A DNA stretch of 64,000 bases, taken from Bdellovibrionales bacterium. GTDB lineage: Bacteria > Pseudomonadota > Alphaproteobacteria > UBA9219. The stretch is taken from positions 142,531-206,530 of the forward strand of contig JBAZRW010000003.1 in assembly GCA_041662785.1 (NCBI GenBank), written 5' to 3'. Position numbers and translations under genes: made by a program. This document shows, in pieces, positions 25,851 through 62,915 of the stretch. Position 1 is the stretch's first letter, and every line of letters begins with the position of its first letter. The notes below the pieces were generated by a model, which made no database searches, had not been told where the DNA came from, and saw nothing but the letters and a program-made list of their open reading frames with translations.

Positions 25851-25932
25851 GTGATGGAATAAGGGCGCGTCCGATCTAACTAAACTCCAGAATCAAACAT
25901 CCAACCGATAGGGGTTGGAAGGAGAGAGCAAA

Positions 25933-26364
25933 ATGGCAAAGGAAATTGTCGGCTATATCAAGCTGCAAGTACCGGCTGGATCGGCGACACCGTCTCCGCC
26001 AATTGGCCCCGCTTTGGGTCAACGCGGCCTAAACATCATGGACTTCTGCAAGCAGTTCAACGCCAAGACGCAAGGCATGGAAAAGGGTATGCCCATTCCT
26101 GTCGTGATCTCAGCCTTTTCGGATCGCACGTTTACGTTCGTGACGAAGAAGCCCCCCAATACCTATTGGATCAAGAAGGCGATCAAGCTTGAGCATGGTT
26201 CCAAGACTCCGGGTACAGCGATGGTTGGCAAGATCACGATGACGCAAATTCGTGAAATTGCAAAAGAGAAAATCGTTGATATGAACGCGAACGATATCGA
26301 AGCGGCGGCCAAAATGCTCGTCGGTTCGGCTCGTTCGATGGGCCTTTTGGTAGTGGAGGAATAA
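25933..26364 (+). CDS. rplK: 50S ribosomal protein L11
   Basis: [43 protein letters not shown]. Start trimmed to the ATG after GGAGAG. Confidence 0.95.
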
Positions 26365-26367
26365 GCC

Positions 26368-43067: not shown

Positions 43068-44117
43068 GTGCAACGGTTCTTAAGCTCTATCGCGCCCGTA
43101 AAGCAAGAGCGCATGAAACCATTAACTATAATGATATGTTTCCTTATTCCTATGGTGTTGTTAAAAGCAGTCAAAGATCAACACGAGGAGCATATTCATA
43201 TGGGTAAAAACAAGAAAGTCAGCCCGAAAGCGATTGCCAAGCTTAAAGAGCAAGGAGAAATTTTAGGCGCATTTGTCGACAACGCCCATGCTCTTTTAAG
43301 TAAAGTGGCGAAGACGAAGGATTTTGCCGCGCTTAAAAAAATTATCCCCATCCTAAGCCAAGCCATTAGGGCAAGCGGTCAAATGGGCGCGTTTAAAGAG
43401 CTCCCTTCTGCCCTAAACCAAAGGGGCTTCATCCATGAATCATTGGCTTTAGATAATGCGTACATCAGCACGCTCCCGCGTGACAGCGCCCTTTGGAGTG
43501 GGATTGTTTTGCGCTACGCGACGGGCGCTGTAAATCTACTGCCAAAGGGTGAAAGCCCTCTTCCTTATCTTTTTAGCATAGCCCCTTATCTTAGACGAAG
43601 TGCGTTGTTATCTCAAACAAAACCTCTCGTGGCTCAATGCTTTTTGCAGGCGGCGCGTCAGGCGACAGAAAATGGTCGCGTTTGTATGGAAGAAGTCGCG
43701 CATAGGTTATATAGGGGGGACACGAAGAGACAGAACAGAATGGCAAGAAGGTTGGCGTGCGACACGATCAAATTTGCCGCTGATAATTCTGTTGCCTATA
43801 AGGCTTATCATGTGTCCTTATCGTCTGTTGTGAACGAAAGAAAAAAACTACGTGATGCCATGAAAACAAAGGAGCAATTGGGCCTTGTTTGTTCTGGTCG
43901 CGAAAAACGCCGAGAGAATCTCTTGCTGGATATTCAGAAAAAAGCGGGCGAAGATTTGATGAGGCGCATGGCCAAGGATCCCGCCGTCCACACGGAACAT
44001 CACTCTGTCCTTATCGCTGATGATGTCTCACGCGACATTCCCATCTTGCGGAAACGATTCAATCAGATGATGAATAAAATACAGCAATATGATGTCCAAG
44101 ACTTAGACTGGGGTTAA
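43068..44117 (+). CDS. hypothetical protein (349 aa), lower-GC, next to the tRNA-Pro repeat
   Basis: Long ORF with a hydrophobic N-terminal segment and no recognisable domain. Start uncertain (alternative ATGs at 43113, 43200). Confidence 0.4.
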   Translation: MQRFLSSIAPVKQERMKPLTIMICFLIPMVLLKAVKDQHEEHIHMGKNKKVSPKAIAKLKEQGEILGAFVDNAHALLSKVAKTKDFAALKKIIPILSQAIRASGQMGAFKELPSALNQRGFIHESLALDNAYISTLPRDSALWSGIVLRYATGAVNLLPKGESPLPYLFSIAPYLRRSALLSQTKPLVAQCFLQAARQATENGRVCMEEVAHRLYRGDTKRQNRMARRLACDTIKFAADNSVAYKAYHVSLSSVVNERKKLRDAMKTKEQLGLVCSGREKRRENLLLDIQKKAGEDLMRRMAKDPAVHTEHHSVLIADDVSRDIPILRKRFNQMMNKIQQYDVQDLDWG

Positions 44118-46248: not shown

Positions 46249-46318
46249 TTTAACGCTCTAGCCCGTGTATAAGCTCGTTGTACGTCGTTCTGGTTACCAA
46301 TATAGGATCTTACTCTCT

Positions 46319-47863
46319 ATGGACAAAATTCTTATTCTCGATTTCGGATCGCAAGTCACGCAGCTGATTGCGCGGCGCGTGCGCGAAGCGGGGGCGTACT
46401 GCGAGATTCACCCCTTTAACCGGACGGATGAGCAGATCAAGGCCTTTGCGCCCAAGGGGATTATCCTCTCCGGCTCGCCCGCCTCGACCACGGAAGACGG
46501 CAGCCCGCGCGCGCCTCAAGCCGTGTGGGATTTGGGCGTTCCCGTTCTGGCCATCTGCTATGGCCAGCAAACGCTTTGCATGCAGCTGGGCGGCCTTGTG
46601 GAAAGCGGCCATACCCGCGAGTTTGGCAAAGCGGAATTGCAAATCACCGAAAGCTGCGCGTTGTTTGAGGGGCTGTGGCCCACCGGCTCAACGCAGCAAG
46701 TCTGGATGAGCCACGGCGACCGCGTGACCAAGATCCCCGAAGGCTTCAAGGTTGTGGCAACCAGCACAGGCGCACCGTTCGCCTTCATTGCGAATGACGA
46801 GCGCAAGATTTACGCAACGCAATTCCATCCTGAAGTCGTTCATACGCTGGACGGTGCGAAGCTTTTGGGCACCTTTGTGCATAAAATATGTGGAATCGGT
46901 GCGGATTGGAGCATGAAGGCCTTTCGCGAGACGGAAATCGCCAAAATCCGCGCTCAAGTCGGCACTGGCAAGGTTATTTGCGGTCTTTCGGGCGGCGTGG
47001 ACAGCTCCGTCGCGGCGGTGTTGATTCACGAGGCGATTGGTGAGCAGCTGACCTGCATCTTTGTCGATACGGGCCTGATGCGCGAAGGCGAGGGCGAGGA
47101 AGTCGTCACGCTGTTCCGGAAACATTACAACATCCCGCTTGTCCATGTACAGGCACAGGATATGTTTTTAAAGGCTTTGGCGGGCGTCAGCGATCCGGAG
47201 ACCAAGCGCAAGACCATCGGCAAATTATTTATCGATGTGTTCGAGGCCGAGGCGCGCAAGATCGGCGGCGCAGGTTTCCTAGCACAGGGGACTTTGTATC
47301 CCGATGTGATCGAAAGCGTGTCCTTTACGGGCGGGCCGAGCGTCACGATCAAGTCGCATCACAATGTCGGCGGCCTGCCAGAGCGCATGAACATGAAGCT
47401 GGTTGAACCTTTGCGCGAACTCTTCAAGGATGAGGTGAGGAAACTTGGCAAAGAGCTTGGTTTACCTGAAACTTTTGTCTCTCGGCATCCTTTTCCGGGG
47501 CCGGGTCTCGCAATTCGTGTCTTAAGCGATATAACCGAGGAAAAACTGGCTATTTTGCGCAAAGCAGACGTGGTTTACCTCGATGAGATCCGAAAAGCGG
47601 GTCTTTATGACGAAATTTGGCAGGCTTTTGCCGTTTTGTTGCCCGTTCGCACCGTGGGCGTCATGGGTGATGGCCGTTCGTACGATTATGTGCTAGGTTT
47701 ACGCGCTGTCACGTCCGTTGACGGGATGACGGCAGAGTCCTACGCTTTCGATCATGCGTTTCTGGCCAAGGTGGCGACTCGTATCATCAATGAGGTGCGC
47801 GGCGTCAATCGCGTCGTCTATGACGTGACCAGCAAACCGCCCGGCACAATTGAATGGGAATAA
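46319..47863 (+). CDS. guaA: GMP synthase (glutamine-hydrolysing)
   Basis: Class-I GATase N-terminal domain ([20 protein letters not shown]) and ATP-PPase motif SGGVDSSV. Start trimmed to MDKIL. Confidence 0.95.
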
Positions 47864-47864
47864 G

Positions 47865-48470
47865 ATGAAGCATTCAGGATTCAGGATTCGGCATTCAGGG
47901 AAAATCCTGCTTGTCCTGATAGCGTGTTTTCTTCCCCAAGCCGCTGCTCATGCCGCGAACCACTGCTATGCGCCGGAAGAGTTAAAGGCGGAGCAGCTCT
48001 TGCGCCTGCATTCCGAGCTTATGGTCATCACGGTAACGTGCAAACAGGGATCAACAGGCCGTGATTTGGTTCGACCTTATGTAGGTTTCACAAAACGTCA
48101 CACCAAGGCTATCCAAGAGGCGGAAGCGACCCTTATCAACTATTATGCGAAAGCCTTTGGGGGCGATGGAATCCCTAAGCTGGATAAGCTTCGCACCAAG
48201 CTGGCCAATGAGTTTGGGCAAACAATCGCTGACGAATCAGCTCCTGCCTTTTGCGCCCGCGCCCGCGACAAGGTGTTGAAAATGTATGACGACCTCTCGC
48301 CAACGATTCTTGAGGACAACATACGATTATATCGTAGCTCTTTGAGCTATGTGCCTCAGTGCGCCCATAATGAGATTCAGACCGCCTCTGCGGATACTGA
48401 AATCGGAGACGAATCCCCCAGAAAGAAAGAGAAACGGGCCGAAAAGGCCACGAACAAAGAAAACCGTTAA
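47865..48470 (+). CDS. hypothetical secreted protein with Lys-rich C-terminus
   Basis: Start 1 nt after the guaA stop. Signal peptide (ILLVLIACFLPQAAAHA), four Cys; no recognisable domain. Confidence 0.4.
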   Translation: MKHSGFRIRHSGKILLVLIACFLPQAAAHAANHCYAPEELKAEQLLRLHSELMVITVTCKQGSTGRDLVRPYVGFTKRHTKAIQEAEATLINYYAKAFGGDGIPKLDKLRTKLANEFGQTIADESAPAFCARARDKVLKMYDDLSPTILEDNIRLYRSSLSYVPQCAHNEIQTASADTEIGDESPRKKEKRAEKATNKENR

Positions 48471-48540
48471 TTCTTCTTGACCGATGGCTCGTAATCGGCC
48501 AAAAACCACACCAAATCATGTCGCATGAAGTGTGTAGGTT

Positions 48541-49425
48541 ATGCCCAGTTTAAAAGACCTCAAAAACCGTATCGCCAGCGTGAAGTCCACGCGCAAAATC
48601 ACGTCCGCTATGAAGATGGTGGCGGCCAGCAAGCTGCGCCGTGCTCAGGACCAAGCGGAATCGTCGCGGCCTTACGCCAAGTTTATTTTGCGCATGACGC
48701 AGGACTTGGCGCGGACGATTGAAATCAGCCCCGAATCGTCCCCTCTTTTGGTTGGACGTGAAAAACAACAAACCGTGTTGCTTGTCGTTCTCACTTCGGA
48801 TCGCGGCTTGTGCGGCGCTTTTAACGGCTCCATCATTCGCGAGGCGCGCCGCCGCATTGTGGCGCTAGAGAAAGAGGGCAAAACCGTTCGTTTGATTTGC
48901 GTCGGGCGTAGGGCTTACAACCTTTTGCACCGTGAGCATGAGGCCAAGATTTTGCACAAAGTCGAAAGCGCCGCGAAGAAGCAGATTGATCTTGCGGATG
49001 CCCAAGAATTAAGTGATCGCCTGATCGCGTTGTTTGAAGAGGGCGCGTTTGATGTCGCCCACATCATTTTCAACCGCTTTAAATCTGCTATCTCACAAAT
49101 TGTGTCGGTAGAACAGCTGATCCCGTTCGGCGTACCTGAGGCCAATGACAACGATGCCGAGGGTCGTTTAGCCTGCGAGATTTTTGAGCCAGAGCAGAAT
49201 ACCTTGATGGCCGCGCTCTTGCGCCGCAATCTGACCGCGCAGCTCTTCGCCGATTTGATGGAAAGCTCGGCGGGCGAGCAGGGCGCACGTATGACAGCCA
49301 TGGATAACGCGACCCGCAACGCGGGCGATATGATCGACCGCTTGACTCTCAACTATAACCGCTCACGCCAAGCCTATATCACCAAGGAGCTGATCGAAAT
49401 CATCTCTGGCGCGGAGGCTGTGTAA
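48541..49425 (+). CDS. atpG: F0F1 ATP synthase subunit gamma
   Basis: MPSLKDLKNRIASVKSTRKITSAMKMVAASKLRRAQ N-terminus; conserved C-terminal helix. Confidence 0.9.
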   Translation: MPSLKDLKNRIASVKSTRKITSAMKMVAASKLRRAQDQAESSRPYAKFILRMTQDLARTIEISPESSPLLVGREKQQTVLLVVLTSDRGLCGAFNGSIIREARRRIVALEKEGKTVRLICVGRRAYNLLHREHEAKILHKVESAAKKQIDLADAQELSDRLIALFEEGAFDVAHIIFNRFKSAISQIVSVEQLIPFGVPEANDNDAEGRLACEIFEPEQNTLMAALLRRNLTAQLFADLMESSAGEQGARMTAMDNATRNAGDMIDRLTLNYNRSRQAYITKELIEIISGAEAV

Positions 49426-49427
49426 GA

Positions 49428-49931
49428 ATGTTTACGTCAGCAAAACTGTCCCGTGACGAATTGATCGGTATGTATGAAATTGCCGAAGGTACTATTTGTG
49501 TTCATCTACAGGAGTTGGAACGGGCAGAAAAACAAGGTCTGATGTCTTTCCCAACAAACGCTGTCACGATTGATCAGACAGATTGTGACAAGGTGTTTGA
49601 GGCTGAATGCAGAGTGCAACGTGTCCTTACGCAGCATGCTACGGTTCTTGGAAGCTCATGTTTTGTCTTTAAAGACTTGCTGCTTGATGGAGGGAAACCA
49701 AGAGAACAACAGGATTTTCCGTTTAATGCTTATCAAAACACAGAGTGGTTGGGCGACTTGTTGTCCATAACACCGAAGGTAGAAGATTTGGCGGTTAGAT
49801 GGGGATTCCATAAAGAGTTGGCCGCCATCAAAGGGGCGCGGATAGGACTGGAAGAAATGTTGGATGCCTGCCGACCTTTGCAAGTTGAGGAGCGGGGTAT
49901 CCCAAAACTAGAAACGCTTAGAGCCGCTTAA
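49428..49931 (+). CDS. hypothetical protein (167 aa) inserted between atpG and atpD
   Basis: ATG 2 nt after the atpG stop; ends 41 nt before atpD; lower GC than flanks; no recognisable domain. Confidence 0.5.
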   Translation: MFTSAKLSRDELIGMYEIAEGTICVHLQELERAEKQGLMSFPTNAVTIDQTDCDKVFEAECRVQRVLTQHATVLGSSCFVFKDLLLDGGKPREQQDFPFNAYQNTEWLGDLLSITPKVEDLAVRWGFHKELAAIKGARIGLEEMLDACRPLQVEERGIPKLETLRAA

Positions 49932-49951
49932 TTTTTTTGAGAACACACTGA

Positions 49952-51406
<1,455 letters not shown>

Positions 51407-51420
51407 AGGCGGGTATCATC

Positions 51421-51810
51421 ATGGCTAACCAACTGCAATTCGAATTGGCCTCACCGCAAAAGCTGGCGTGCAGCAAGCCTGTCGTGATGGTGACGGTTCC
51501 GGGCGGCGAGGGCGACTTTGGCGTCATGCTTGGACATGCGCCTATGGCCACGACTGTGGCGATGGGCGTTGTTGAAGCCTATGAGCATGACCAAACGACT
51601 GTGACAGAGCGCTGGTTCGTTGCAGGCGGCTTTTGTGAGGTTGTGGGCGACCGCTGCACCGTGATGGCCGATCAAGTCATCGCGATAAAAGATTTGAAGA
51701 AAGATATTCTTGAAGAGGAAATCGCCAGCTTAGCCAAAGAAGCCGCCAACGATTCTGACGCGGCACAGAAAATGGCCATCGCTCAAGCGAAGTTGCAGGT
51801 GATTGGCTAG
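51421..51810 (+). CDS. atpC: F0F1 ATP synthase subunit epsilon
   Basis: 129 aa directly after atpD; beta-sandwich N-terminus and helical C-terminus typical of AtpC. Confidence 0.85.
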   Translation: MANQLQFELASPQKLACSKPVVMVTVPGGEGDFGVMLGHAPMATTVAMGVVEAYEHDQTTVTERWFVAGGFCEVVGDRCTVMADQVIAIKDLKKDILEEEIASLAKEAANDSDAAQKMAIAQAKLQVIG

Positions 51811-52132
51811 AGCCGAACCGTTTAGTTTCCTCATTTCCCCCACCGTCATCGCGAGGGGGCGTCTTGTCCGGCGTAGCTGCGAAGCAGCGAAGACGGAAGC
51901 CCCCGTGGCGATCCATCTCCTGAATTTAGCGAAGAGCAATTCTAGTGGAAGGTTGAGGAGATGGATTGCCGCGCTCCCGTTGGTCGCTCGCAATGACGTG
52001 GGATATCATGAGAACCATCCAGAATAGCTATAGTCCTTTTTTCTGGTCAATTAGCTCTGTTTTTTGCCCCCGAAAAGTCGGCCATCGACATGCTTTGTTA
52101 TCAAATACTTAGCGCAAAAACATTCGCCACGG

Positions 52133-52440
52133 TCGAGCAGAGCGTGGAATAGTGCCACTCAGTATCCTTCCGCTCAAAGTTAACGTCGTAAGTCTTTGAT
52201 ATACAACGAAACTGACTCGAATTTGGGTCTATGCTAACCAATTGATTCTAAAGGGCTTTGTCAACTTCGCCCGATTTTGGATTGCCAAAAGCAAAAAATC
52301 AGGAGTCAGGGGGTGAGGTTCAGAGTTGGTCTCTCCTCTTTCGTCATCCCCGACCCCTCTGCGCCCTTCGGGCTTCGCGGGGCAGGCAAAGCGACGCAGC
52401 AGCGGAGCGGAGATACAGGATACATCTTCTGAAATGACCA
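52133..52440. repeat. ~300-bp repeat, family C copy 2
   Basis: Matches 27236-27530 in several blocks; ends in a CGTCATCCC...GCAGGCAAAGC hairpin module. Confidence 0.7.
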
Positions 52441-52763
52441 AGAGCGACTCAGGTAGAAATTTCAGGTGATGGATCCCGCCTTCCGGCGGGATGACGGGAG
52501 GGGGGCTGGCATCCCTTTTTTTTGAATCATTTTATCTGACGTAGGTTATAATGGGTTACGCAAGAGGTCTATTTCACAAGATCGCTAATCTCTCTAAAAT
52601 TTTCAATTTTCAAATTGACTTCCATTTTCATTCATTCTATGCCACGGCAGCGTTGCACACCGCGTTCAAGGTGGGCCTCGTCGTGAATCCTTCTTAACGT
52701 ATGCAATGAAGGTATTCGCTTCGCAAAACCAACTTGCTCGTCTACATAACGATGGATCCTTTC

Positions 52764-54773
52764 ATGTCTTTGACAATGGCTCAGCTGGCGGTACTTTTAA
52801 CCCTCATGTCTTCGGTTGCGGCGCTCGTTTTCGCGAGACAGCCCCGTTTTATGATCAGCTTGTCGTTCTTCTTGCTTGGCCTATCCGGCCTTGTAGCCGT
52901 TGCAGCGGGCGGCATGGCCTTGCTAGGCAATCAGGTTGAGCAAACCATTCTCCCCATCGGCCTTCCTTGGCTGCATGTTTGCCTTCATATCGATGCTCTT
53001 GCGGCTTTCTTTCTCTTCATTGTCGGGTTCGTCACTTTCGTCGCATCCTGCTATGGACCATCCTATATAAGTCGTCACGCCGATGATGGCGTGCATGCTG
53101 TTGGCACGCTAACCTTTTTCACGGGTCTTTTTGTCGGCGGTATGTACCTTGTGCTTTTGGCGGCGGACGCTTTTTCCTTTATGATTGCTTGGGAATTGAT
53201 GTCGGTCGCAAGCTATTTTCTTGTGGCCTATCAGCATGACAGAGCGGAAAATCGCAGCGCCGCCTTTATCTATCTTCTTATGGCCGTTGTTGGTGGGGCG
53301 TTTATCCTTCTTTCCTATGGCGTCCTAGCTGGCTTTAGCGATGGGTTTAGCTTTGCTTCTATGGCAAAAGCGAACCTTACCCCCGCATGGGCCACCATCG
53401 CCTTTTCGCTCGCCTTTGTCGGGTTTGGGCTTAAAGCCGGTATCGTTCCGTTGCATGTTTGGTTGCCTCAGGCGCATCCTGTCGCACCTTCCCACATCTC
53501 AGCCTTGATGTCTGGCGTCATGCTTAAAGTCGCCGTCTATGGTTTTATCCGTTTTGTCTTTGACCTATTAGGGGGCATCCACTGGCAGTGGGGTGTTCTG
53601 GTTCTTCTGGTCGGCGCGATTTCGGCTCTTATGGGCGTTTTGTATGCCCTTATGCAGCACGATCTTAAACGCCTTCTCGCCTACCACAGCGTCGAAAACA
53701 TCGGGATCATCTATATCGGCCTTGGCCTCTCCATGATTTTCACGGCAACCAACCATAAGGAAGTTGCCGCTATTGCCTTGGTCGCCGCTCTTTATCACTG
53801 TCTCAATCACGCCTTGTTCAAGAGCTTGCTCTTTTTGGGGGCGGGCGCGGTTTTAGAACAAAGCGGCCAACACAATATGGAGCATATGGGCGGTCTCATC
53901 AAAAAGATGCCCGTCACAGCGGCTTGCTTTTTGGTCGGATGCGTCAGTATTTGCGCCCTTCCTCCCTTTAACGGCTTTGTCTCAGAATGGCTGATTTACC
54001 AAGCCGCTTTGCAAGGCACGGTTTTAAAGAGTGGCATTTTGGGAACGGCTCTTCCCATCACGTCCGCCATGCTGGCGTTGACAGGGGCTTTGGCTATTGC
54101 CTGCTTTGTCAAGGTCTACGGGGTCGTTTTCTTAGGGCTTCCCCGCACCGAGAAAATCCATGAAGCGCATGAAGTTCCTCGCGGCATGCAATTTTCCCAA
54201 ATCATCCTGTCCATCAGCTGCTTGGTTTTTGGTATCTTCCCAACATGGACAGCAAACGTCCTTAACGTCATCCCGCAAAAACTTCTGGGCACAGGGTTTG
54301 CGGGAGCCAATGGCGACAGCTGGTTGTGGTTGACCCCCATCAGCAAAGAGACAGCCTCGTATGGTGCGCTTCCTGTCCTGATCGGTCTTTTGATCAGCTG
54401 GGTCGTCGTTTACTTCTTCCTTCACCCGCCCACACGCGACAACAGCATCCGTATTGCTCCGGCATGGGATTGCGGGTTTGGGCCTTTGAACGCACGCATG
54501 CAATACACAGCCACGTCCTTTGCCATGCCCATTCGTCGGATTTTCTCCTTCGCTTGGCATGTTTCGGAGAAAGTCGAGCCCGCGCATATGGGCAAGGGGC
54601 CTCACTATTTCCTTCATGTTAGTGACTGGGTTTGGATGTACGCGTATGCGCCTATTGGCAAAATTATCCATAAGGTTGCCGAAAGAACGGCGCGCATTCA
54701 AGGGGGCGATCTTCGTATTTACCTCTGCTATTCCTTCTTTACCTTACTCTTTTTGCTCTGGGTGATCGTATGA
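52764..54773 (+). CDS. hyfB: hydrogenase-4 component B-like membrane subunit (HyfB/HycC, NuoL-type antiporter-like)
   Basis: Aligns along its length with E. coli HyfB (LPQAHPVAPSHISALMSGVMLKVAVYG...). Start uncertain (TTG 52734, ATG 52752/52764/52776). Confidence 0.85.
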   Translation: MSLTMAQLAVLLTLMSSVAALVFARQPRFMISLSFFLLGLSGLVAVAAGGMALLGNQVEQTILPIGLPWLHVCLHIDALAAFFLFIVGFVTFVASCYGPSYISRHADDGVHAVGTLTFFTGLFVGGMYLVLLAADAFSFMIAWELMSVASYFLVAYQHDRAENRSAAFIYLLMAVVGGAFILLSYGVLAGFSDGFSFASMAKANLTPAWATIAFSLAFVGFGLKAGIVPLHVWLPQAHPVAPSHISALMSGVMLKVAVYGFIRFVFDLLGGIHWQWGVLVLLVGAISALMGVLYALMQHDLKRLLAYHSVENIGIIYIGLGLSMIFTATNHKEVAAIALVAALYHCLNHALFKSLLFLGAGAVLEQSGQHNMEHMGGLIKKMPVTAACFLVGCVSICALPPFNGFVSEWLIYQAALQGTVLKSGILGTALPITSAMLALTGALAIACFVKVYGVVFLGLPRTEKIHEAHEVPRGMQFSQIILSISCLVFGIFPTWTANVLNVIPQKLLGTGFAGANGDSWLWLTPISKETASYGALPVLIGLLISWVVVYFFLHPPTRDNSIRIAPAWDCGFGPLNARMQYTATSFAMPIRRIFSFAWHVSEKVEPAHMGKGPHYFLHVSDWVWMYAYAPIGKIIHKVAERTARIQGGDLRIYLCYSFFTLLFLLWVIV

Positions 54774-55714
54774 CGGGCTGGATCTTTGCGCTTGTTCAAA
54801 CGCTTTGCGTTGTCCTTTTTGCTCCCTTTTTGGCCGGTTGGGTCAAATGGGTAAAATGTAAGTTGCAGAACAGGCAGGGGCCTGCTCCATGGCAACCCTA
54901 TCGTGATCTGCTGCGCCTTTCCAGAAAGCAGGTTGTGCTGGCGGATGTGGCTTCGCCCATTTTCCGTGCTGCGCCTTATATTGTTTTCGGCGCCACTGTC
55001 GTCGCCGCCTCTGTTTTGCCCATCGTCTCGACGCAGCTGCCCACAGCGGCTTTGGCGGATGTTATCGTTTTGGTTGGGATTTTCGCTCTTACGCGCTTCT
55101 TCCTCGCCTTGGCGGGCATGGATGTCGGCACGTCCTTTGGCGGTATGGGTTCTTCGCGTGAGGTGACTCTATCCTCTCTTGCCGAGCCTGCGCTTTTGAT
55201 GACCTTCTTCACGTTGGCGATGAACGTATCCAGCACCAACCTGTCCTCTGCCGTGTCCCATCTTGCTCAGGCTAACTTTACCTTAGCGCCGTCGCTCATC
55301 TTTTCTTTTATGGCGCTGCTTCTTGTCGCCGTGGCAGAAACAGGGCGCATTCCTATTGATAATCCTGCCACGCATCTTGAGCTTACCATGATTCATGAAG
55401 CCATGATTCTGGAGTACAGTGGCCGCCACCTCCTTTTGATGGAGTGGGCTTCCATGCTCAAGCTCACGCTCTATTCGATTTTGATCGTCAACCTGATCGT
55501 TCCATGGGGCGTGGCAATGACGATGGAGCCGAAGGATGTTGCGTTTGCCGCTATCACCGTGTTGGGCAAGTTAATGGCGCTTGGCATTTTGCTGGCGGTT
55601 TCAGAAACGTCTCAAGCCAAAATGCGTTTGTTCCGCGCCCCCCAATATCTTGGCATGGCCTTTATTCTGTCCCTTCTTGGGATGATGAGCCATATTATCC
55701 TAGAGGTTCGATAA
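54770..55714 (+). CDS. hyfC: formate hydrogenlyase subunit 4-like (HyfC/HycD, NuoH-type)
   Basis: 314 aa; start overlaps the hyfB stop; resembles HycD throughout (RQGPAPWQPYRDLLRL...). Confidence 0.85.
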   Translation: MTGWIFALVQTLCVVLFAPFLAGWVKWVKCKLQNRQGPAPWQPYRDLLRLSRKQVVLADVASPIFRAAPYIVFGATVVAASVLPIVSTQLPTAALADVIVLVGIFALTRFFLALAGMDVGTSFGGMGSSREVTLSSLAEPALLMTFFTLAMNVSSTNLSSAVSHLAQANFTLAPSLIFSFMALLLVAVAETGRIPIDNPATHLELTMIHEAMILEYSGRHLLLMEWASMLKLTLYSILIVNLIVPWGVAMTMEPKDVAFAAITVLGKLMALGILLAVSETSQAKMRLFRAPQYLGMAFILSLLGMMSHIILEVR

Positions 55715-55715
55715 C

Positions 55716-56393
55716 ATGCTTATAGCTTCTCTCTCGATGCCTGAACAGGTAACGCTGACGCTGTCAGCGCTGATCTTGCTTTCCTCTTTTCTTCTGCTGG
55801 CTCAGGTGCGTGTCGACAGCTTGATCAACACCTTTGCGCTGCAAGGCCTGCTGTTGTTTTCCGCAACGCTTGCCATTGCGTTTATATCAGGGAAGTATGA
55901 CCTCCTGATCTCGGCGGCTCTGACCCTTGGCCTCAAGGTTATTTTTATCCCCTCGCTGTTACGCAGACTTATTATTCGGTTGGATATCCATCGCGAGATT
56001 GAGGTTCTCGTTAAGCCTTCCTTGGTCATGCTTTTTGGCGGGGGTCTTGTTCTTTTCAGCTATTATGTCTCGCTGCCCATTACCGAGTTGTCTCTGTTGT
56101 CCACGCGAAACACGATTGCCATTTCCTTGGCCGTTGTTCTGATCGGCATGCTGATGATCATCTCTAGGCGCAAGGCCATCTCGCAAGTTATCGGCTTTAT
56201 GTCGATGGAAAACGGCCTTTTCTTTGCCGCTGTCGTTTCCACGTTCGGTATGCCCATGGTCGTCGAGCTTGGGATTGCCTTTGACGTGCTGGTAGCCGTT
56301 ATTCTGTTTGGCGTCTTCTTCTTCCACATTCGTGCCGAAATCGGCAGCCTAGATACGGACCGCCTAAATCGTTTGAATGAGGTCGATAAATGA
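55716..56393 (+). CDS. hyfE: hydrogenase-4 component E-like small membrane subunit (HyfE)
   Basis: 225-aa polytopic membrane protein in the HyfE position and size. Confidence 0.7.
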   Translation: MLIASLSMPEQVTLTLSALILLSSFLLLAQVRVDSLINTFALQGLLLFSATLAIAFISGKYDLLISAALTLGLKVIFIPSLLRRLIIRLDIHREIEVLVKPSLVMLFGGGLVLFSYYVSLPITELSLLSTRNTIAISLAVVLIGMLMIISRRKAISQVIGFMSMENGLFFAAVVSTFGMPMVVELGIAFDVLVAVILFGVFFFHIRAEIGSLDTDRLNRLNEVDK

Positions 56394-57856
56394 TTGCTCT
56401 TTACTTTACCCTTTTGTTTCCTTTTTCAGGCGCACTTCTCTTGGGATTAATAGGCCATTGGAAGTCGGCCAAATATGTGAACATGACCATCTGCTGGGGG
56501 ACGCTTATCGCCGCCTTCTTGTTGGCCCTAGATGTTTTTGAAAAAGGCCCCATCTTGTCCTCTGGCAAGCTCTTTTATATCGATGCCTTCAACGTCTATC
56601 TTATCTTGCTCAATGCCTTTGTCGGCCTGACAACCTCTATTTTTTCTGGCCCCTACATGAGCCATGAAAGGGATATTGGACGCGTTGGTGATAAGCGGAT
56701 GAGGCTCTATCACTCGATGTTTCAAGGCTTCCTTTTCACGATGCTAGCCGCGCTATCGACCAATAACCTTGGCATCCTTTGGGTGTCTATCGAGGCCGCC
56801 ACCTTGACGACTGTCCTGTTGGTTAGCCTTTACCGCACCCATGAATCGATTGAGGCGGGCTGGAAGTACTTTATCATTTGCGGCGTCGGCATTTCGCAAG
56901 CCTTGTTCGGCACGATCCTCGTCTATTTCGCTTCGGCAAAGGTTATTCCGGGGCATGAAGACGGCCTGCTCTGGACAGTATTGCAAACCTACGCCGCTCA
57001 TATGGACAAAGGCGTGATGGCCTTGGCTTTTGTTTTCCTCCTTGTCGGTTACGGAACAAAGGTTGGTTTGGTTCCTTTGCACAATTGGCTTCCTGACGCG
57101 CATTCCGAAGGCCCGACTCCTATGTCGGCCATTCTCTCCGGCCTTCTTCTGAACGTTGCTCTATACGCGCTTGTTCGCTTTAAAATGCTGGCGGATCCGT
57201 CCCTCGGCAACCATCTGGCGGGTAATTTGATGATGGGCTTTGGCATGCTGTCGTTCTCTGTCGCAGGCATTCTGCTTCATCGCCAATACGACATCAAACG
57301 GATGTTCAGCTATTCCTCGATTGAGCATATGGGACTAATGACCTTTGCCTTTGGTATTGGCGGACCCTTGGCCACGTTTGGGGCGCTTTTGCATATGATC
57401 GTTCACTCCCTGACGAAATCGGCTATTTTCGTCACGGTAGGGCACGCCTCTCAAATTGCGGGCACGCAGGTGATCAGCAAAATACGCGGCCTTGTTCGCT
57501 CTAACCCTGCTGTGGGGTGGAGTCTTTTGCTGGGAACCTGCGCTATTGCGGGCTTCCCACCCTTCGGCGTCTTTACCAGCGAGTTTCTTCTCTTTACGGC
57601 CACGATCAAAAGTTATCCATGGCTTGTCTTGCCGCTTCTTGTTGGCTTGGCGGTCGCTTTTGCCGGACTGTTTCGGAACATTCAGCCCATGGTCTTTGGC
57701 GAGCCGCCAGAGAACCAGCGCAAAGTGCCCGTTAATATGTGGCCTGTATTCATTCATCTGGCCTTGGTGCTGTGGCTCGGTCTTGCTATTCCGACCGTCT
57801 TGGCTCAATGGCTTAATCAAGCAACCATCATGATCGTTGGACAGGGCGTGCTATGA
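56390..57856 (+). CDS. hyfF: hydrogenase-4 component F-like (HyfF, NuoN/M-type antiporter-like)
   Basis: 488 aa; Mrp/Nuo antiporter motifs (LVPLHNWLPDAHSEGPTPMSAILSG). Overlaps both neighbours by 4 nt. Confidence 0.8.
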   Translation: MIALYFTLLFPFSGALLLGLIGHWKSAKYVNMTICWGTLIAAFLLALDVFEKGPILSSGKLFYIDAFNVYLILLNAFVGLTTSIFSGPYMSHERDIGRVGDKRMRLYHSMFQGFLFTMLAALSTNNLGILWVSIEAATLTTVLLVSLYRTHESIEAGWKYFIICGVGISQALFGTILVYFASAKVIPGHEDGLLWTVLQTYAAHMDKGVMALAFVFLLVGYGTKVGLVPLHNWLPDAHSEGPTPMSAILSGLLLNVALYALVRFKMLADPSLGNHLAGNLMMGFGMLSFSVAGILLHRQYDIKRMFSYSSIEHMGLMTFAFGIGGPLATFGALLHMIVHSLTKSAIFVTVGHASQIAGTQVISKIRGLVRSNPAVGWSLLLGTCAIAGFPPFGVFTSEFLLFTATIKSYPWLVLPLLVGLAVAFAGLFRNIQPMVFGEPPENQRKVPVNMWPVFIHLALVLWLGLAIPTVLAQWLNQATIMIVGQGVL

Positions 57857-59460
57857 CAAAATCAGTACATAAAGGGCAACTTGAATCCCCCGTTGTGGCT
57901 TCCCTTCCGACATTGCTGAACGAAGCAGGCATTCCGACGACAGAAATGCCCGCCGTCAAGGGCGCTGCCCGCGCGCTGTCCATCGACTCCCGTTTCTGGG
58001 CCAAAGCCGCTTCCGTTATGGCTGAAAACTATGTGCGTTGGTCAGCCGTATGGGGTGAGCATGACTCTCCCAACATTTTGATCAAGGCCGTTTTCGCCGC
58101 TCGTGATGGGCATGTCTTGCTTTGCACAAGCGTTCAAGAAACAGGCGGCGTGCTTCCGTCTCAAACACCATTCTTTCCGGCTGCCAATCGGCCAGAACGC
58201 ACACTTCAGGATATGTTCGGTATTCGTTTTTCCGATCATCCCGATCAGCGGCGCTGGCTGCGCCATTTGGCGTGGGGCGAAGATCAGTTTCCTCTCCGCA
58301 AGGAGTTTCCGCTGGCGGGAACACCGCAACAGGAAACGCCGCCTGATTGCCAATACGCGTTTATTCCGGCTGAAGGGGAGGGGCTCTATGAAATTCCTGT
58401 TGGCCCCGTCCATGCTGGCATTATCGAGCCTGGGCATTTCCGCTTTTCGGCAATGGGCGAGGATATCCTCAACTTGGAACAGCATCTAGGCTATGTCCAC
58501 AAAGGCATAGAAAAATGCGCCGAAGGCCGTGATGTGCAGGGGCTTCTTCGCCTTGCTGCGCGCGTCTCTGGAGACAGCACCGTCACCCATTCATGGGCCG
58601 CCTGTCAGGCTTGCGAAAATGCTGTTGGCCTTAAAGTTCCCGACCGCGCCCTTGTCATCCGCGCCATCCTTTCTGAAAGAGAGCGCATTGCCAATCATCT
58701 GGGTGACATTGGCGCTTGCTGTAATGATGTTGGCTTTGCCTTTGCTCTCGTGCAATTTGGCCGCCTGCGTGAGCTTTGGCAGCGTGATAACGCAACCGTT
58801 TTCGGTCATCGCTTTATGATGGATGTTGTAACGGCGGGCGGCGTAACCCGTGACATCTCGCCAGAGCACGTTGCCTTGCTGCAAAAATCCATCGTTCAGT
58901 TACGCAAAGAACTGAAAGAGCTTATCCCCATGCTGTGCGAATATCCTTCGTTGCAAGACCGCTTCCGCACGACGGGTATCCTATCGCCCCATGTTGCAAG
59001 AACCATTGGCGCTCTGGGCTATGTGGCTCGTGCCAGCGATGAGTGTTGGGACATGCGTCGCGATGCCCCCTATGCTCCGTATCAAAATGTTACAGTCGCC
59101 GTGCCTAACTGTAAAGAGGGCGATACGGCAGGACGCGTGCGCGTGCGTGGCGAGGAGCTTTTCATTTCTCTCGATCTGTTGGATAGCTTCCTATCAAACA
59201 TGCCGTCAGGCAAAATCAGCGCGGACTTCCACGCCCCCCAAACAGACTGCTTCGGCGTAGGCTTGGTTGAAGGGTGGAGGGGCGAAACCATCGCCTACGT
59301 TCACTTGGATAGCAACGGAACCGTGGCTCGTTATTTCCCGCGCGATGCAAGCTGGCTCAACTGGCCTGCTCTTGAGGCCCTGATTGGAGGTGTGATCGTT
59401 CCCGATTTCCCTCTTTGTAACAAATCCGTCAACGGCTCGTACTCAGGCCATGATGTTTAA
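57853..59460 (+). CDS. hyfG: [NiFe]-hydrogenase group-4 large subunit-like (HyfG/HycE, fused NuoC-NuoD type)
   Basis: N-terminal NuoC-like plus NuoD-like parts (GPVHAGIIEPGHFRFS...). N-terminal CxxC present (AACQAC); the C-terminal region has only one Cys (DFPLCNKS). Confidence 0.85.
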   Translation: MTKSVHKGQLESPVVASLPTLLNEAGIPTTEMPAVKGAARALSIDSRFWAKAASVMAENYVRWSAVWGEHDSPNILIKAVFAARDGHVLLCTSVQETGGVLPSQTPFFPAANRPERTLQDMFGIRFSDHPDQRRWLRHLAWGEDQFPLRKEFPLAGTPQQETPPDCQYAFIPAEGEGLYEIPVGPVHAGIIEPGHFRFSAMGEDILNLEQHLGYVHKGIEKCAEGRDVQGLLRLAARVSGDSTVTHSWAACQACENAVGLKVPDRALVIRAILSERERIANHLGDIGACCNDVGFAFALVQFGRLRELWQRDNATVFGHRFMMDVVTAGGVTRDISPEHVALLQKSIVQLRKELKELIPMLCEYPSLQDRFRTTGILSPHVARTIGALGYVARASDECWDMRRDAPYAPYQNVTVAVPNCKEGDTAGRVRVRGEELFISLDLLDSFLSNMPSGKISADFHAPQTDCFGVGLVEGWRGETIAYVHLDSNGTVARYFPRDASWLNWPALEALIGGVIVPDFPLCNKSVNGSYSGHDV

Positions 59461-59515
59461 GACAGGGTCGTTTCACCTTTTCGCAGTTTAACTCTTAGCT
59501 CATCGGATTGCTTCC

Positions 59516-60025
59516 ATGTTTCACGTTCTTTTCAAAAGCTTCAAAACGGGCTGTTTAACAGAAAAACTGCCCCCCCGTGATGAGTCTCTCGATCAAGTCG
59601 GTGAGGCTTGCCGCGAAGAGATTGCGCGTCTCTTCGGCAAAAGCATGGCCGTTCGCATGGTTGATGCGGGATCCTGCAATGGATGCGAGCTTGAAATGCA
59701 CGCGGTCAACAACGGTTTTTACGATATTGAGCGTTTTGGTATTCACTTCGTCGCCTCCCCCCGTCATGCCGATCTTTTGTTGGTAACGGGGCCTGTGTCG
59801 CGTCACATGCAAGCTGCGCTGAAACGCACCTATGACGCAACCCCTTCGCCCAAGGTCGTAATCGCGATGGGGGATTGCGCCGCATGCGGCGGCGAGTTTG
59901 GCGTGTCCTATGCTAGTTGTGGGGCTGTCTCGAACGTCATCCCCGTGGATGCCGTTATTCGCGGCTGTCCTCCGACCCCTCTACAACTCCTTCAGGGAAT
60001 TTTGGAAGTTCTTAAGGCTCGTTGA
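59516..60025 (+). CDS. hyfI: hydrogenase-4 small subunit-like (HyfI/HycG, NuoB-type, [4Fe-4S])
   Basis: Cluster ligands GSCNGCE, GDCAACGG, GCPPTP; strong match to HycG (RFGIHFVASPRHADLLLVTGPVSR). Confidence 0.8.
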   Translation: MFHVLFKSFKTGCLTEKLPPRDESLDQVGEACREEIARLFGKSMAVRMVDAGSCNGCELEMHAVNNGFYDIERFGIHFVASPRHADLLLVTGPVSRHMQAALKRTYDATPSPKVVIAMGDCAACGGEFGVSYASCGAVSNVIPVDAVIRGCPPTPLQLLQGILEVLKAR

Positions 60026-60297
60026 TAGCTTTTTGAGTCGGCTTTTCAGAATCCCACCCCGGTGGACACCTCTTGTTGCATAAAGGCAAAAAAAGGGGGG
60101 GGCAAAAAATTCGTTTACACTTATTTTACTTGTAATCGAATAAGGTTTGAATACTAATCATTAACCATGATTTCTTCCTCCGTTTTCGTCGTGGATGCCT
60201 GTAATCTTGTGGTTTTCCTGAATGAATCCAGCCCCCTTGATTCTGTTTAATGTGTCAAATCCTTGTCTCACTTCTTAAGCTTTTGCAGGAGTTCCCA

Positions 60298-60840
60298 ATG
60301 AAAAGAGTTTTCCTTACACGCGTTCTTGTTTGTGCTGGTTTCTTTGCCCTTGTTTGTGGCATGGCGGCTCCAGCACAAGCTGTTGATCAAGCGGATTTGA
60401 TGGTTGCGCTTAAAACCACACCGCTTCTAACGAATAAACTATCGGGCAGTGCCGTTATGGCGGTTGTGTTTGATCCCGCTGATGCAGCATCAAAAGCAGA
60501 GGCTGATTCGCTTAAAGCACTTCTCGATGCAGGGATCGACGCACCAGGTGGTGTTAAAATCACGGGGATGATGGTTCCTGTCGCCGAGGTTGGCAGTAAG
60601 CTTTCTTCCGCCAAGCTGGCCTTCATTACAAAGGGGGCTTGTACGGCTCCAGTGAGCACAGCGGCAAACGCGGCGGGTGTGTTGTCGATGTCAACCGATC
60701 TTGACTGCGTAAAAGGCAATAAGTGCATTCTAGGTATCGTCACGAAGCCAAGCGTTGAAATCTACTACAGCAAAACGGCAGCCGATGCAGCCAAAGTTGG
60801 CTTTGCGCAGGCGTTCACCATGCTCGTCAAACAAATCTAA
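60298..60840 (+). CDS. hypothetical periplasmic protein upstream of the TonB-dependent receptor gene
   Basis: Start trimmed to the ATG after AGGAG. Signal peptide (VLVCAGFFALVCGMAAPAQA); Ala-rich mature part with 3 Cys. Confidence 0.4.
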   Translation: MKRVFLTRVLVCAGFFALVCGMAAPAQAVDQADLMVALKTTPLLTNKLSGSAVMAVVFDPADAASKAEADSLKALLDAGIDAPGGVKITGMMVPVAEVGSKLSSAKLAFITKGACTAPVSTAANAAGVLSMSTDLDCVKGNKCILGIVTKPSVEIYYSKTAADAAKVGFAQAFTMLVKQI

Positions 60841-60887
60841 TATCTTTATCTGACAACGATCCAGAAAATACCCAAAGGAGTTACACT

Positions 60888-62915
60888 ATGAAAAAATCAT
60901 CTCTTTTCCTCTGCTCCATGTGCGCTTTTGCTGTAGCCATGTCATGCGGGACCTCAAGTCGTGCGAACGCTATGGACTATGGTTCATTAGAGGCGTTGTT
61001 CGGTGAACCGGTTACCACAAACGCCACGGGCACACCCCAACGCGCTAGTGAAGTTGCAGCGAACATGACCATCATTACGGCCGATCAAATCCGTCAATCG
61101 GGAAACCGCAGCATTCCTGAAATTATTGGTCAATATGTTACTGGTGTCGATGTTTTAAGAACCTCTTTAGGTGATTATGATGTTGGCGTTCGTGGACATC
61201 AGATGGTTTTCCAATCACGCCTTCTCGTTCTCGTTGATGGCCGTCAGGTTTTTATTGATGACTATTCCCGCACGGTCTGGAACAATCTCCCCGTCAACAT
61301 TGACGATGTGCGTCAAATTGAGGTTGTGAAGGGGCCCGCTTCGGCTCTCTTTGGCTCAAACGCCGCCAGTGGTGTTGTCAACATCATCACCTATAGCCCC
61401 GTCAGCGATAAAAACAACGTTGCGGCTGTAAGCTTGGGGACGCAGAATTCGCTAACAGGCGATGCAACGGTTACCAAGAATGGGACGTGGGGTGGCACTA
61501 AATTCTCGGCGGGTGGGTTAAGCGCCGATGAGTTTAAGACCGGCCATGCGGCAAACGACTCTTCCATCATTTATTCGCCAGAACGTCGTTTTGCCTCCAA
61601 CAGCTCTGTGTTTAATTTAACGCCTGATCTGACAGCCAACATGGAAGTGACGGCATCGGAGAGTAAGCAGAATGTGGCTTTGTCTGCTTTCAACTCCGTA
61701 GGTGCGGAGGATACGGCGACGTATTCGGCGCGTGGTGGGTTCAATTGGCAGACAGATTACGGCATGATCACGTCCGACACCTACTTCAATCACGCCTATG
61801 ACACCATCTACTCATCGATATCGACCACCATTCCTTTTGGTCTGACAACCGACTTAGTTGTTAGCAGCTTGAACGACCAGTTCAAGGTTGGCTCTGATCA
61901 CACGTTCCGTACTGGCCTTGAATATCGTCATAAAGACTTTAGGCTGACAGCCTACCAGATCGCACCCGGATCGCCCGCGTATCATGAGGACAACTATGCG
62001 GCAAGCGGAACATGGTTATGGCAGATCGCTAACAACTTATCGCTGACCAATGCGGTTCGGTTTGACCATCTGGACATGAACATGACGGGACAAATCCCGA
62101 CTGTGACTATGTTCTCGGACTCTGACTATAGCCATGCCATCAATACATGGAGTGCGAATTCCGCTCTGGCTTATAAGATGACGGATCTTGATACCTTCCG
62201 TTTGTCCTATGGGCGTGGCGTGCAAATGCCCAGCTTGCTGCAAAGCGGCTCTAACTTCCATACTTTGAACGGGGCCACCCCTGTTTCTCTGGAAGGGAGC
62301 GGGGATCTTAAACCAACGATTACGCAAAGCTATGAGGTTGCCTATGATCGTAAGATTGCCCCCATCTACTCGACAGCAAAACTGGCGACCTTCTATGTTA
62401 TGTCGCAGGATGTAGCCTCTTTCGTCAACAACGGCATGCAAAATGTCAACGGTTCTGTGGTTGATTTAATCAAGGCCGAAAACATTGGCGAGAGTCAGTC
62501 TTACGGTGGCGAAATTGCTTTAACGGGTAATCACAACGGGTTCCGTTGGGATGCCAGCTATAGCTTAGCTAAGGTGATCGATTCAGCCAGTGTTCTTGCT
62601 AATCAGGATTACCAAGGCTCTTCGCCAGAGCATCACTTCCGCTTTGGTCTCGGTTATACCTATAAGGATTGGGAGTTTGACGCGAATAGTCAGGTTATGT
62701 CCTCAACAAAAATCTTGCGTGACGCAACGGGTGCTGGTGCTATCCCCATTCCTGTTTCGGAATACATGACGGTTGGGGCGCGGGTTGGCTACAACCTGAT
62801 GGACAACCTGAATGTCGCGGTTTCTGGAACCAACCTTAATCGTCACACAATTGGAACAAGCCCGTATCCAGCTGTTGAGCGTCAGGCTTTTGTCACGCTT
62901 ACGGGTAAGTTCTAA
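60888..62915 (+). CDS. TonB-dependent outer-membrane receptor
   Basis: Signal peptide, plug domain (IEVVKGPASALFGSNAASGVVNIIT), 22-strand barrel length, C-terminal aromatic residue (…TLTGKF). Confidence 0.85.
   Translation: MKKSSLFLCSMCAFAVAMSCGTSSRANAMDYGSLEALFGEPVTTNATGTPQRASEVAANMTIITADQIRQSGNRSIPEIIGQYVTGVDVLRTSLGDYDVGVRGHQMVFQSRLLVLVDGRQVFIDDYSRTVWNNLPVNIDDVRQIEVVKGPASALFGSNAASGVVNIITYSPVSDKNNVAAVSLGTQNSLTGDATVTKNGTWGGTKFSAGGLSADEFKTGHAANDSSIIYSPERRFASNSSVFNLTPDLTANMEVTASESKQNVALSAFNSVGAEDTATYSARGGFNWQTDYGMITSDTYFNHAYDTIYSSISTTIPFGLTTDLVVSSLNDQFKVGSDHTFRTGLEYRHKDFRLTAYQIAPGSPAYHEDNYAASGTWLWQIANNLSLTNAVRFDHLDMNMTGQIPTVTMFSDSDYSHAINTWSANSALAYKMTDLDTFRLSYGRGVQMPSLLQSGSNFHTLNGATPVSLEGSGDLKPTITQSYEVAYDRKIAPIYSTAKLATFYVMSQDVASFVNNGMQNVNGSVVDLIKAENIGESQSYGGEIALTGNHNGFRWDASYSLAKVIDSASVLANQDYQGSSPEHHFRFGLGYTYKDWEFDANSQVMSSTKILRDATGAGAIPIPVSEYMTVGARVGYNLMDNLNVAVSGTNLNRHTIGTSPYPAVERQAFVTLTGKF

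Follow-up and report, generated by a model that had tools for sequence, protein, structure and literature searches.

A six-gene Ehr/Hyq-type cassette without NiFe ligands in an alphaproteobacterial genome

Contig JBAZRW010000003.1 of assembly GCA_041662785.1, deposited as a Bdellovibrionales bacterium, carries on its forward strand a cassette of six genes that resembles hydrogenase-4 and formate hydrogenlyase (FHL) operons. Here, we analyse this cassette, which occupies positions 52764-60025 of a 64,000-nucleotide stretch of the contig (positions 142,531 to 206,530; hereafter, the window). We find that it encodes an energy-converting-hydrogenase-related (Ehr) complex with the hyqBCEFGI gene order, rather than hydrogenase-4 or FHL, and that it is a new member of the known, widespread and uncharacterised Ehr/Hyq family. 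Taken as a whole, the evidence is best explained by descent from group-4 membrane-bound [NiFe] hydrogenases in which the NiFe site has disappeared, an explanation that we hold to be probable. The product is not a conventional hydrogenase; we favour, with similar confidence, a minimal complex-I-like module that couples redox chemistry to ion translocation.

Results

The large subunit, EhrL (hyqG-like; 57853-59460, + strand; 535 aa), is a fused NuoC-NuoD/HycE-like protein homologous to group-4 [NiFe]-hydrogenase large subunits and to NuoD, with matches to PF00329, PF00346 and PF00374 and to HycE of the Escherichia coli FHL structure (PDB 7z0s_E, E 1e-68). An AlphaFold2 (AF2) model (pTM 0.85) finds its best fold match in the same HycE chain (TM 0.77), followed by the fused NuoCD proteins of Aquifex and E. 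coli; model confidence is low at the beta1-beta2 loop and at the C-terminus, both of them interface elements. In the alignment with E. coli HycE, RVCGICGFAHS becomes RVSGDSTVTHS and DPCYSC becomes NGSYSG, and all four cysteine ligands of the [NiFe] site are replaced (S239, S242, S529 and G532). Both ligand motifs, L1 (RxCGxCxxxH) and L2 (DPCxxCxxH/R), are gone, with EhrL reading RVSGDSTVTH and NGSYSGHDV in their place. EhrL also ends three residues past the former L2 motif, where HycE-type representatives extend for 29-32 residues more, and has no C-terminal maturation peptide of the kind cleaved by a protease. Since both the NiFe ligands and this peptide are missing, the cassette does not encode hydrogenase-4 or FHL.

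EhrL is the fifth product of six co-directional, intact and full-length open reading frames (ORFs) on the + strand. The first gene, ehrA (hyqB-like; 52764-54773, +; 669 aa), encodes an antiporter-like subunit of HyfB/HycC/NuoL type (NF005086, 817 bits, above cutoff; PDB 7z0s_C, E 1e-68), whose C-terminus is an ND3-like extension bearing a WxCG loop. It is followed by ehrB (hyqC-like; 54770-55714, +; 314 aa), encoding a NuoH/ND1/HycD-like membrane anchor (PF00146; PDB 7z0s_D, E 3e-43), by ehrC (hyqE-like; 55716-56393, +; 225 aa), encoding a HyfE-like membrane subunit that covers 207 of 216 positions of NF008556 (E 1e-25, below cutoff) and is NuoK-like in its C-terminal half (a weak PF00420 match), and by ehrD (hyqF-like; 56390-57856, +; 488 aa), encoding a second antiporter-like subunit of HyfF/NuoM-N type (NF005045, 739 bits, above cutoff). 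No PDB chain matched EhrC, either by single sequence or by an 18-sequence profile. After ehrL, the cassette closes with ehrS (hyqI-like; 59516-60025, +; 169 aa), encoding a NuoB/HycG-like small subunit (PF01058) whose best structural match, Pyrococcus furiosus MbhJ, lies marginally above HycG (6cfw_J, E 7e-34 vs 7z0s_G, E 1e-32). The longest ORF of the first gene begins with TTG at 52734; we place the start at ATG 52764, since the NF005086 alignment begins only at residue 11 and the protein has 669 aa in an independent gene call made on an identical contig. Neighbouring genes overlap by 4 nt at three of the five junctions (at 54770, 56390 and 57853), and the other two are a 1-nt gap at 55715 and a 55-nt gap before 59516.

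A first-pass annotation of the window, made from its sequence, had named the order hyfB-hyfC-hyfE-hyfF-hyfG-hyfI, noted that most genes overlap at their start and stop codons, and proposed a minimal Ehr-type complex rather than an ordinary hydrogenase-4, with canonical NiFe ligands as the test between the two. Our family assignments and junctions agree with the first two statements, and the absence of all four ligands, here and across the family, upholds the third. An ordinary hydrogenase-4 or formate hydrogenlyase-2 whose missing parts (HyfA, HyfD, HyfH, HyfJ, FdhF and Hyp) are encoded elsewhere would account for the best NCBIfam matches of two membrane subunits, which are to 'hydrogenase 4 subunit B/F' and lie above cutoff. 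Given that the NiFe ligands and C-terminal peptide are gone, that EhrS has no extra Fe-S domain, and that EhrL falls apart from HycE-type proteins in the tree described below, we assign this possibility a negligible probability, and consider the 'hydrogenase 4' annotation of such genes misleading.

A scan of species-representative genomes returned at least 593 confirmed matches, from which 80 loci were kept for analysis. These come from Desulfobacterota, Methylococcales, Chromatiales, Thiotrichales, Zetaproteobacteria, Nitrospirota, Gallionellales, Acidithiobacillus, Burkholderiales, Azospirillum, Rhodopseudomonas and others; essentially all complete cassettes among them keep the six-gene order, across phyla, and their large subunits lack the NiFe ligands throughout (78 locus sequences). 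The 120 closest homologues of EhrL (58-100% identity) carry nearly the same replacement motifs, RVSGDS(T)VxH[AS] and NKSVNGSYSGHDL. Identity of the large subunit to distant taxa is 58-79%, with a mean column identity of 71%, and the nearest named homologues (58-70%) are from Desulfobulbales, Geopsychrobacter, Geothermobacter and Desulfuromusa. Of 150 representatives at 50% identity, all four cysteines persist in 22, and most others show S/A-x-S-G patterns. In a quick neighbour-joining tree, rooted on HycE-type sequences, without support values and used only for placement among Cys-less sequences, the Cys-bearing sequences form a basal grade and EhrL lies deep inside a large Cys-less radiation, separate from the HycE type. 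Three loci, from zetaproteobacterial, Nitrospirota and Methylibium metagenome-assembled genomes (MAGs; L043, L045 and L048), carry two tandem Ehr-type cassettes (for example, L045 23-4425 and 4486-12152), the second copy being 26-40% identical to the window proteins, with 48-58% for its small subunit.

To map known functional residues, we transferred those of the FHL study (PMC9474812) through alignments of EhrL, EhrA and EhrB, the deposited chain being offset by a His-tag insertion. The proton donor of the beta1-beta2 loop, HycE E193, corresponds to EhrL E192, and the loop histidine H188 to H187; in the canopy, R478 and S283 correspond to R476 and N281; and the substrate-proton path of H284, E437 and R395 corresponds to H282, E435 and R393. 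The 'strictly conserved' canopy aspartate, HycE D529, is changed to Asn527 in EhrL, and an invariant residue with no FHL counterpart, Asp241, has appeared within the former L1 motif. Residues H187, E192, D241, N281, H282, E435, R476 and N527 are 97-100% conserved, and position 393 is Arg or Lys in 76 of 78 sequences. Constraint extends to the residues now standing in for the NiFe ligands: S239 and S529 are conserved at 96% and G532 at 99%, and 74 of 78 sequences have Ser or Thr at position 242.

The membrane subunits retain a comparable set of coupling residues. In EhrB, the E-channel residues R109, E131, E139 and E190 (HycD R108, E130, E138 and E189), together with the ND1-loop residues D197, E204, E210 and E215, are at least 97% conserved, and the highly conserved loop reads D197-N-P-x-T-H-x-E204-x-T-x-x-H-E210-x-x-x-x-E215-Y-S. 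The antiporter residues E135, K239, H328, H332, K336, E391 and C537 of HycC correspond to E144, K255, H345, H349, K353, E408 and C570 of EhrA; across 60 family members, conservation is at least 95% for each of these EhrA residues and for K224 and W568. EhrA accordingly keeps the glutamate of transmembrane helix 5 (E144), the lysine of helix 8 (K255), the glutamate of helix 12 (E408) and C570 of the ND3-like WxCG loop; K224 is the canonical lysine of helix 7, a position at which HycC has Leu208. In EhrD, E135, K224, K343 and E398 are invariant. Residue 255 of EhrD, where antiporter-like subunits typically have the helix-8 lysine that the HyfB-like EhrA keeps, is an invariant asparagine (75 family members). 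EhrC conserves two membrane glutamates, E165 and E184. Finally, the EhrS cysteines C54, C57, C121 and C151, ligands of one [4Fe-4S] cluster in a CxxC...C...C arrangement, are at least 97% conserved in 73 sequences.

This conservation bears on whether the cassette could be the decaying, non-functional relic of a hydrogenase operon, as has been assumed for Geobacter Ehr (PMC13194489). Loss of both the catalytic site and the electron-input domain (see below) would suit such a relic. Decay is hard to reconcile, however, with six full-length ORFs with translationally coupled junctions, a large subunit 58-79% identical to that of distant taxa, dozens of invariant functional residues that include the replacement residues, a gene order conserved across phyla, and the abundance of Ehr subunits as proteins in Geobacter. 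On this conservation we reject the relic, or pseudogene, as very unlikely.

The electron-input domain has been removed from the small subunit in the clade to which EhrS belongs. One Cys-bearing relative (L082) has a separate 114-aa gene for a 2x[4Fe-4S] protein between its large- and small-subunit genes, and in another (L083) such a domain is fused into a 240-aa small subunit; three other Cys-less clades (L085, L088 and L089) likewise have fused small subunits, of 247-269 aa. By alignment, the fused proteins (L083, L085, L088 and L089) have in common an insert of some 80 residues in which the motif CxxCxxCxxxCP occurs twice; it separates the NuoB domain from a conserved peptide at the N-terminus (ML..L....VTE). 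As judged from sequence, these proteins would be NuoI/HycF-NuoB fusions. In EhrS and its clade the insert is cleanly deleted and the N-terminal peptide kept, and the small subunits of this clade measure 142-191 aa in 73 of 73 cases. The retained peptide may be the amphipathic N-terminal element present in all solved structures of the superfamily (PMC9474812). With the ferredoxin-like insert deleted, the complex would be left with one Fe-S cluster and without an electron-input wire of its own.

We next consider the host and the surroundings of the cassette. RpoB encoded in the window is approximately 79% identical to that of Azospirillaceae, which supports the alphaproteobacterial host named in the first-pass annotation, here an uncultured one, and 82-90% identical to that of MAGs labelled Alphaproteobacteria or Bdellovibrionales; the latter label is probably wrong for these RpoB-related MAGs. 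EhrL, by contrast, is 61-69% identical to Desulfobacterota versions vs 44-45% to those of Azospirillum and Rhodopseudomonas, which places it in a clade other than the usual alphaproteobacterial one; horizontal acquisition would be the simplest explanation of these identities. The first-pass annotation had also called such a cassette unusual for an alphaproteobacterium, a view that does not hold, as alphaproteobacterial diazotrophs carry a hyq operon in the same B-C-E-F-G-I order (PMC2650096, PMC3357923).

Our scan of window ORFs covered nearly all non-overlapping ORFs of at least 150 aa and 10 of the 18 of 60-149 aa; its results leave out an rpoC-size ORF (15234-19421) and eight ORFs of 60-104 aa, and a 349-aa ORF (43068-44117) has no Pfam match. 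Among the scanned ORFs of the 64-kb window, none encodes HyfA, HyfD, HyfH, HyfJ, FdhF, FocA, Hyp, HycI, a further Fe-S subunit or a nickel transporter, in line with the first-pass annotation, which had listed HyfA, HyfD, HyfH, HyfJ, formate dehydrogenase, the formate channel and hyp genes as missing from the window. The scanned remainder consists of housekeeping genes.

Upstream of the cassette lies an intergenic region of 950 bp (51810-52764). Between atpC and ehrA it contains a terminator-like hairpin with a T-run (52495-52524, +), within a repeat element with 16-nt inverted arms (52335-52350 and 52488-52503), and a sigma-70-like promoter candidate (52573-52600, +; TTCACA-16-TAAAAT, 10 of 12 positions) approximately 165 nt 5' of ehrA, both identified as consensus matches only. 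A second inverted-repeat element has 21-nt arms (51904-51924 and 51953-51973); these intergenic elements are probably copies of dispersed repeats. No NifA box (TGT-N10-ACA) was found in 51811-52763, where the best sigma-54 match reaches 7 of 11 positions. The upstream regulator that the first-pass annotation had thought worth seeking is also absent: no helix-turn-helix (HTH) or hyqR-like gene precedes the cassette, and the sole small ORF there (52551-52697) looks spurious.

The same annotation had singled out the position beside the ATP synthase operon as unusual. In two relatives, at 77% and 72% identity, unrelated flanks surround the same six genes, of which five match in length and the large subunit measures 535 or 540 aa. 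Because these close relatives differ in their flanks, and because terminator-like and promoter-like sites separate the two gene sets in the window, we consider the adjacency incidental and reject a functional link to the ATP synthase genes. The segment preceding the cassette (46265-51810) comprises guaA, a 206-aa ORF (47850-48470) with no Pfam match, atpG, a 167-aa ORF (49428-49931) with no Pfam match, atpD and atpC; the F1 ATP synthase genes are themselves unusually arranged, with the 167-aa ORF between atpG and atpD and neither atpH nor atpA upstream. Farther away (10107-27078), rpoB and the rpoC-size ORF, of 1395 aa, lie upstream rather than downstream of nusG, rplK and rplA, and a solute-binding-protein gene (24392-25252) lies between nusG and rplK. 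On the 3' side of the cassette (60250-62915 and beyond; L081 10981-12687) follow genes for a secreted protein of 180-196 aa with no Pfam match, a TonB-dependent receptor and a methyl-accepting chemotaxis protein; in the 77%-identical relative, a methyl-accepting chemotaxis protein gene directly follows the small-subunit gene (L090 12394-14088).

When the flanking ORFs of all 80 loci were clustered, no neighbour and no redox partner was conserved throughout. Neighbours were clade-specific only, comprising SulP transporters, a DUF2490 outer-membrane protein, a sigma-54 response regulator with a histidine kinase, and a small HTH protein, none of which occurs in the window. Some of these neighbours raise the alternative that the complex is an ion or inorganic-carbon transporter with a structural or regulatory Fe-S cluster, for example a redox-gated cation/proton transporter, or a vectorial system for CO2 hydration or bicarbonate like cyanobacterial NDH-1/CupA or DAB. 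In 13 loci, mainly from Methylobacter, Methylococcaceae and other Methylococcales (including L006, L007, L011, L013 and L042; for example, L006 2730-4415), the cassette is immediately preceded by one or two SulP genes in the same orientation, and a beta-carbonic anhydrase gene (L087 7139-7771) abuts another Ehr cassette; together, these are a hint that the complex is tied to anions or inorganic carbon in some clades. The two complete antiporter-like subunits and the lost ferredoxin module would also fit a transporter. However, the SulP and carbonic anhydrase neighbours are confined to certain clades and occur neither in the window nor in the closest relatives, and no CupA/DabA-like gene was seen. 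Moreover, the near-invariance of the cluster ligands and of the substrate-proton path leading to the pocket speaks for redox chemistry. We therefore judge a pure transport function unlikely.

Discussion

How might a complex with one Fe-S cluster and no NiFe site work? In the ion-translocating redox module that we favour, the single [4Fe-4S] cluster of EhrS would exchange electrons with a soluble one-electron carrier docking at the site of the lost ferredoxin module (ferredoxin or flavodoxin being a guess), and with a membrane- or pocket-bound acceptor, for which quinone is the leading guess. Proton uptake, with accompanying changes in charge and protonation, would occur in the remodelled polar pocket that once held NiFe (Ser239-Gly-Asp241-Ser242 / Asn527-x-Ser529-Tyr-Ser-Gly532), fed by the conserved proton path. 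We propose that these changes would be relayed through the beta1-beta2, ND1 and ND3 loops, which would drive, or be driven by, movement of H+ or Na+ via EhrB, EhrC, EhrA and EhrD. The complex could run forward, conserving energy, or in reverse, with the proton-motive force driving production of a low-potential reductant. The reverse mode would fit the frequent presence of these complexes in diazotrophs and chemolithoautotrophs, and could explain the H2 phenotypes of Azorhizobium, described below, in an indirect way.

Several observations weigh against this proposal. The donor, the acceptor, the direction and the transported ion are guesses; and a complete path for electrons cannot be traced in the sequences, which provide for only one cluster and no ferredoxin module. 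Complex I is characterised by a quinone-ligating tyrosine (Nqo4 Y87) and histidine (H38) in NuoD and by a tandem-cysteine N2 cluster in NuoB (PMC9474812 and established knowledge). In the alignment of EhrL with Aquifex NuoCD (RMDYIS vs RVSGDS), the tyrosine is replaced by Gly240 and the histidine position by Ile191/Glu192, and the EhrS cluster motif is C54-x-x-C57 rather than tandem cysteines. The otherwise strictly conserved canopy aspartate is Asn527. In the literature, no activity has been shown for a purified Ehr/Hyq complex, and genetics in Azorhizobium caulinodans tie the homologous operon to H2 fluxes (PMC2650096, PMC3357923). We tried and set aside a 'quinone reductase' of complex I type, since its Tyr/His ligands are absent from EhrL; it remains a guess.

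A bolder idea, to which we give only a small chance, is that the nearly invariant replacement pocket beside the [4Fe-4S] cluster, E192 and R476 is not dead but forms a new catalytic site. If so, the complex might activate or evolve H2 while lacking a Cys4 NiFe centre, which is what the genetics of Azorhizobium would call for; alternatively, it might couple another proton-coupled reduction, of a small molecule or quinone, to ion translocation, and would then be the smallest known machine of complex I type, with six subunits and one cluster. Ehr/Hyq complexes are common, occurring in methanotrophs, sulfur and iron oxidisers, nitrifiers, metal reducers, diazotrophs and Mycobacterium tuberculosis; the one system studied genetically, Azorhizobium Hyq, is claimed to turn over H2 with a protein that has no NiFe ligands.

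Relation to known systems

The Ehr family was defined by Coppi (2005) and Marreiros et al. (2013), as those works are cited in PMC6349859, PMC10284858 and PMC7894505, and papers up to 2023 describe its function as unknown (PMC4378227, PMC6349859, PMC10284858). In Geobacter, Ehr subunits have been detected as proteins and are abundant in formate-grown cells (PMC7894505). Like the Ehr cluster of Geobacter sulfurreducens (GSU0739-0745, encoding EhrA-1, A-2, B, C, D, L and S), the window cassette encodes a ligand-less large subunit together with NuoB-like small, NuoH-like and antiporter-like subunits, the combination that marks an Ehr complex; unlike it, the cassette has six genes rather than the seven reported there. 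A six-gene hyc-like operon of M. tuberculosis, Rv0082-Rv0087, has also been called Ehr-like (PMC6728331, PMC6901956). As a collective name, 'Ehr' also takes in clades that have a fused 2x[4Fe-4S] small subunit or a different placement of the genes. In the M. tuberculosis operon, the small-subunit gene probably comes first rather than last.

The closest match in gene order is the hyqRBCEFGI operon of A. caulinodans and other alphaproteobacterial diazotrophs (PMC2650096, PMC2930871, PMC3357923). This operon depends on NifA, and its deletion alters H2 recycling and evolution; its authors describe the product as a 'core six-subunit version of complex I' and an 'endo-hydrogenase', that is, an H2:quinone oxidoreductase. 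They also point out that both CxxC motifs are missing from HyqG, and consider a NiFe site 'uncertain, if not unlikely' (PMC2650096, PMC3357923). The window cassette has the identical six structural genes in order, HyqG being a NuoC::NuoD fusion without CxxC and HyqI a small NuoB homologue with four cysteines and one N2-type cluster. Unlike Hyq, the cassette groups with the Desulfobacterota and gammaproteobacterial type (EhrL is 44-45% identical to the Azospirillum and Rhodopseudomonas representatives), and shows no hyqR-like gene, no NifA/sigma-54 promoter and no nif context in the window.

The parallel with Hyq raises the alternative that the cassette, too, encodes an inward-facing H2:quinone oxidoreductase, a non-canonical H2 enzyme without a Cys4 NiFe site. 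The shared gene order speaks for this, as do the changes in H2 uptake and evolution on hyq deletion in N2-fixing A. caulinodans (PMC2650096, PMC3357923) and the retention of the hydrogenase-type beta1-beta2 loop glutamate, canopy arginine and Gly240. Yet the four ligands and the maturation peptide are gone, no hyp genes were found in the window, and the Hyq authors themselves doubt the NiFe site. The H2 phenotypes were seen in vivo, in cells whose nitrogenase also makes H2, and the present cassette is only 44-45% identical to the Hyq clade and lacks its NifA/sigma-54 control region. We also considered an alternative metal site formed by the three conserved HyqG cysteines (C258, C491 and C497), for which the alphaproteobacterial loci carry PLCNKSFNCSYSGHDL, in agreement with the published numbering. 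These cysteines correspond to EhrL C290 and C522, both present, and to Gly528, where the cysteine is lost. Since EhrL has Gly528 in place of the third cysteine, and the betaproteobacterial clade has Ile and Leu in place of the second and third, no alternative thiolate site exists across the family, and we reject this candidate. On balance, an H2-converting enzyme of this kind seems to us quite improbable.

Among enzymes that do keep the NiFe ligands, Ehr has been placed closest to group 4f (PMC10284858). The closest Cys-bearing relatives of the cassette are probably group 4f [NiFe] hydrogenases, on the basis of their motif INKSFELCYxCxDR without a C-terminal tail and of the same literature. 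They resemble the cassette in the HyfB-HyfC-HyfE-HyfF-large-small backbone (L083), the NKS motif and the same C-terminal end, at 33-41% identity, and differ in keeping the four cysteine ligands and a ferredoxin-like 2x[4Fe-4S] gene or domain. E. coli FHL (Hyd-3, 7Z0S) offers the best solved-structure match for the large, HyfB-like and NuoH-like subunits and has its proton-path and E-channel residues in common with them; unlike FHL and Hyf, the cassette has no NiFe ligands and no HycB, HycF, HyfA, HyfH or FdhF. It does encode a second antiporter-like subunit and a HyfE-like subunit, both of which FHL-1 lacks.

With complex I, the cassette shares the logic of a Q-module joined to a P-module, a fused NuoC-NuoD as in E. 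coli and Aquifex, and four coupling loops; it has no NuoEFG, NuoI or separate NuoA, NuoJ or NuoK genes. The proteobacterial clade described here is the most reduced version of Ehr, with one Fe-S cluster, and nevertheless retains all the coupling elements of complex I and the membrane-bound hydrogenases.

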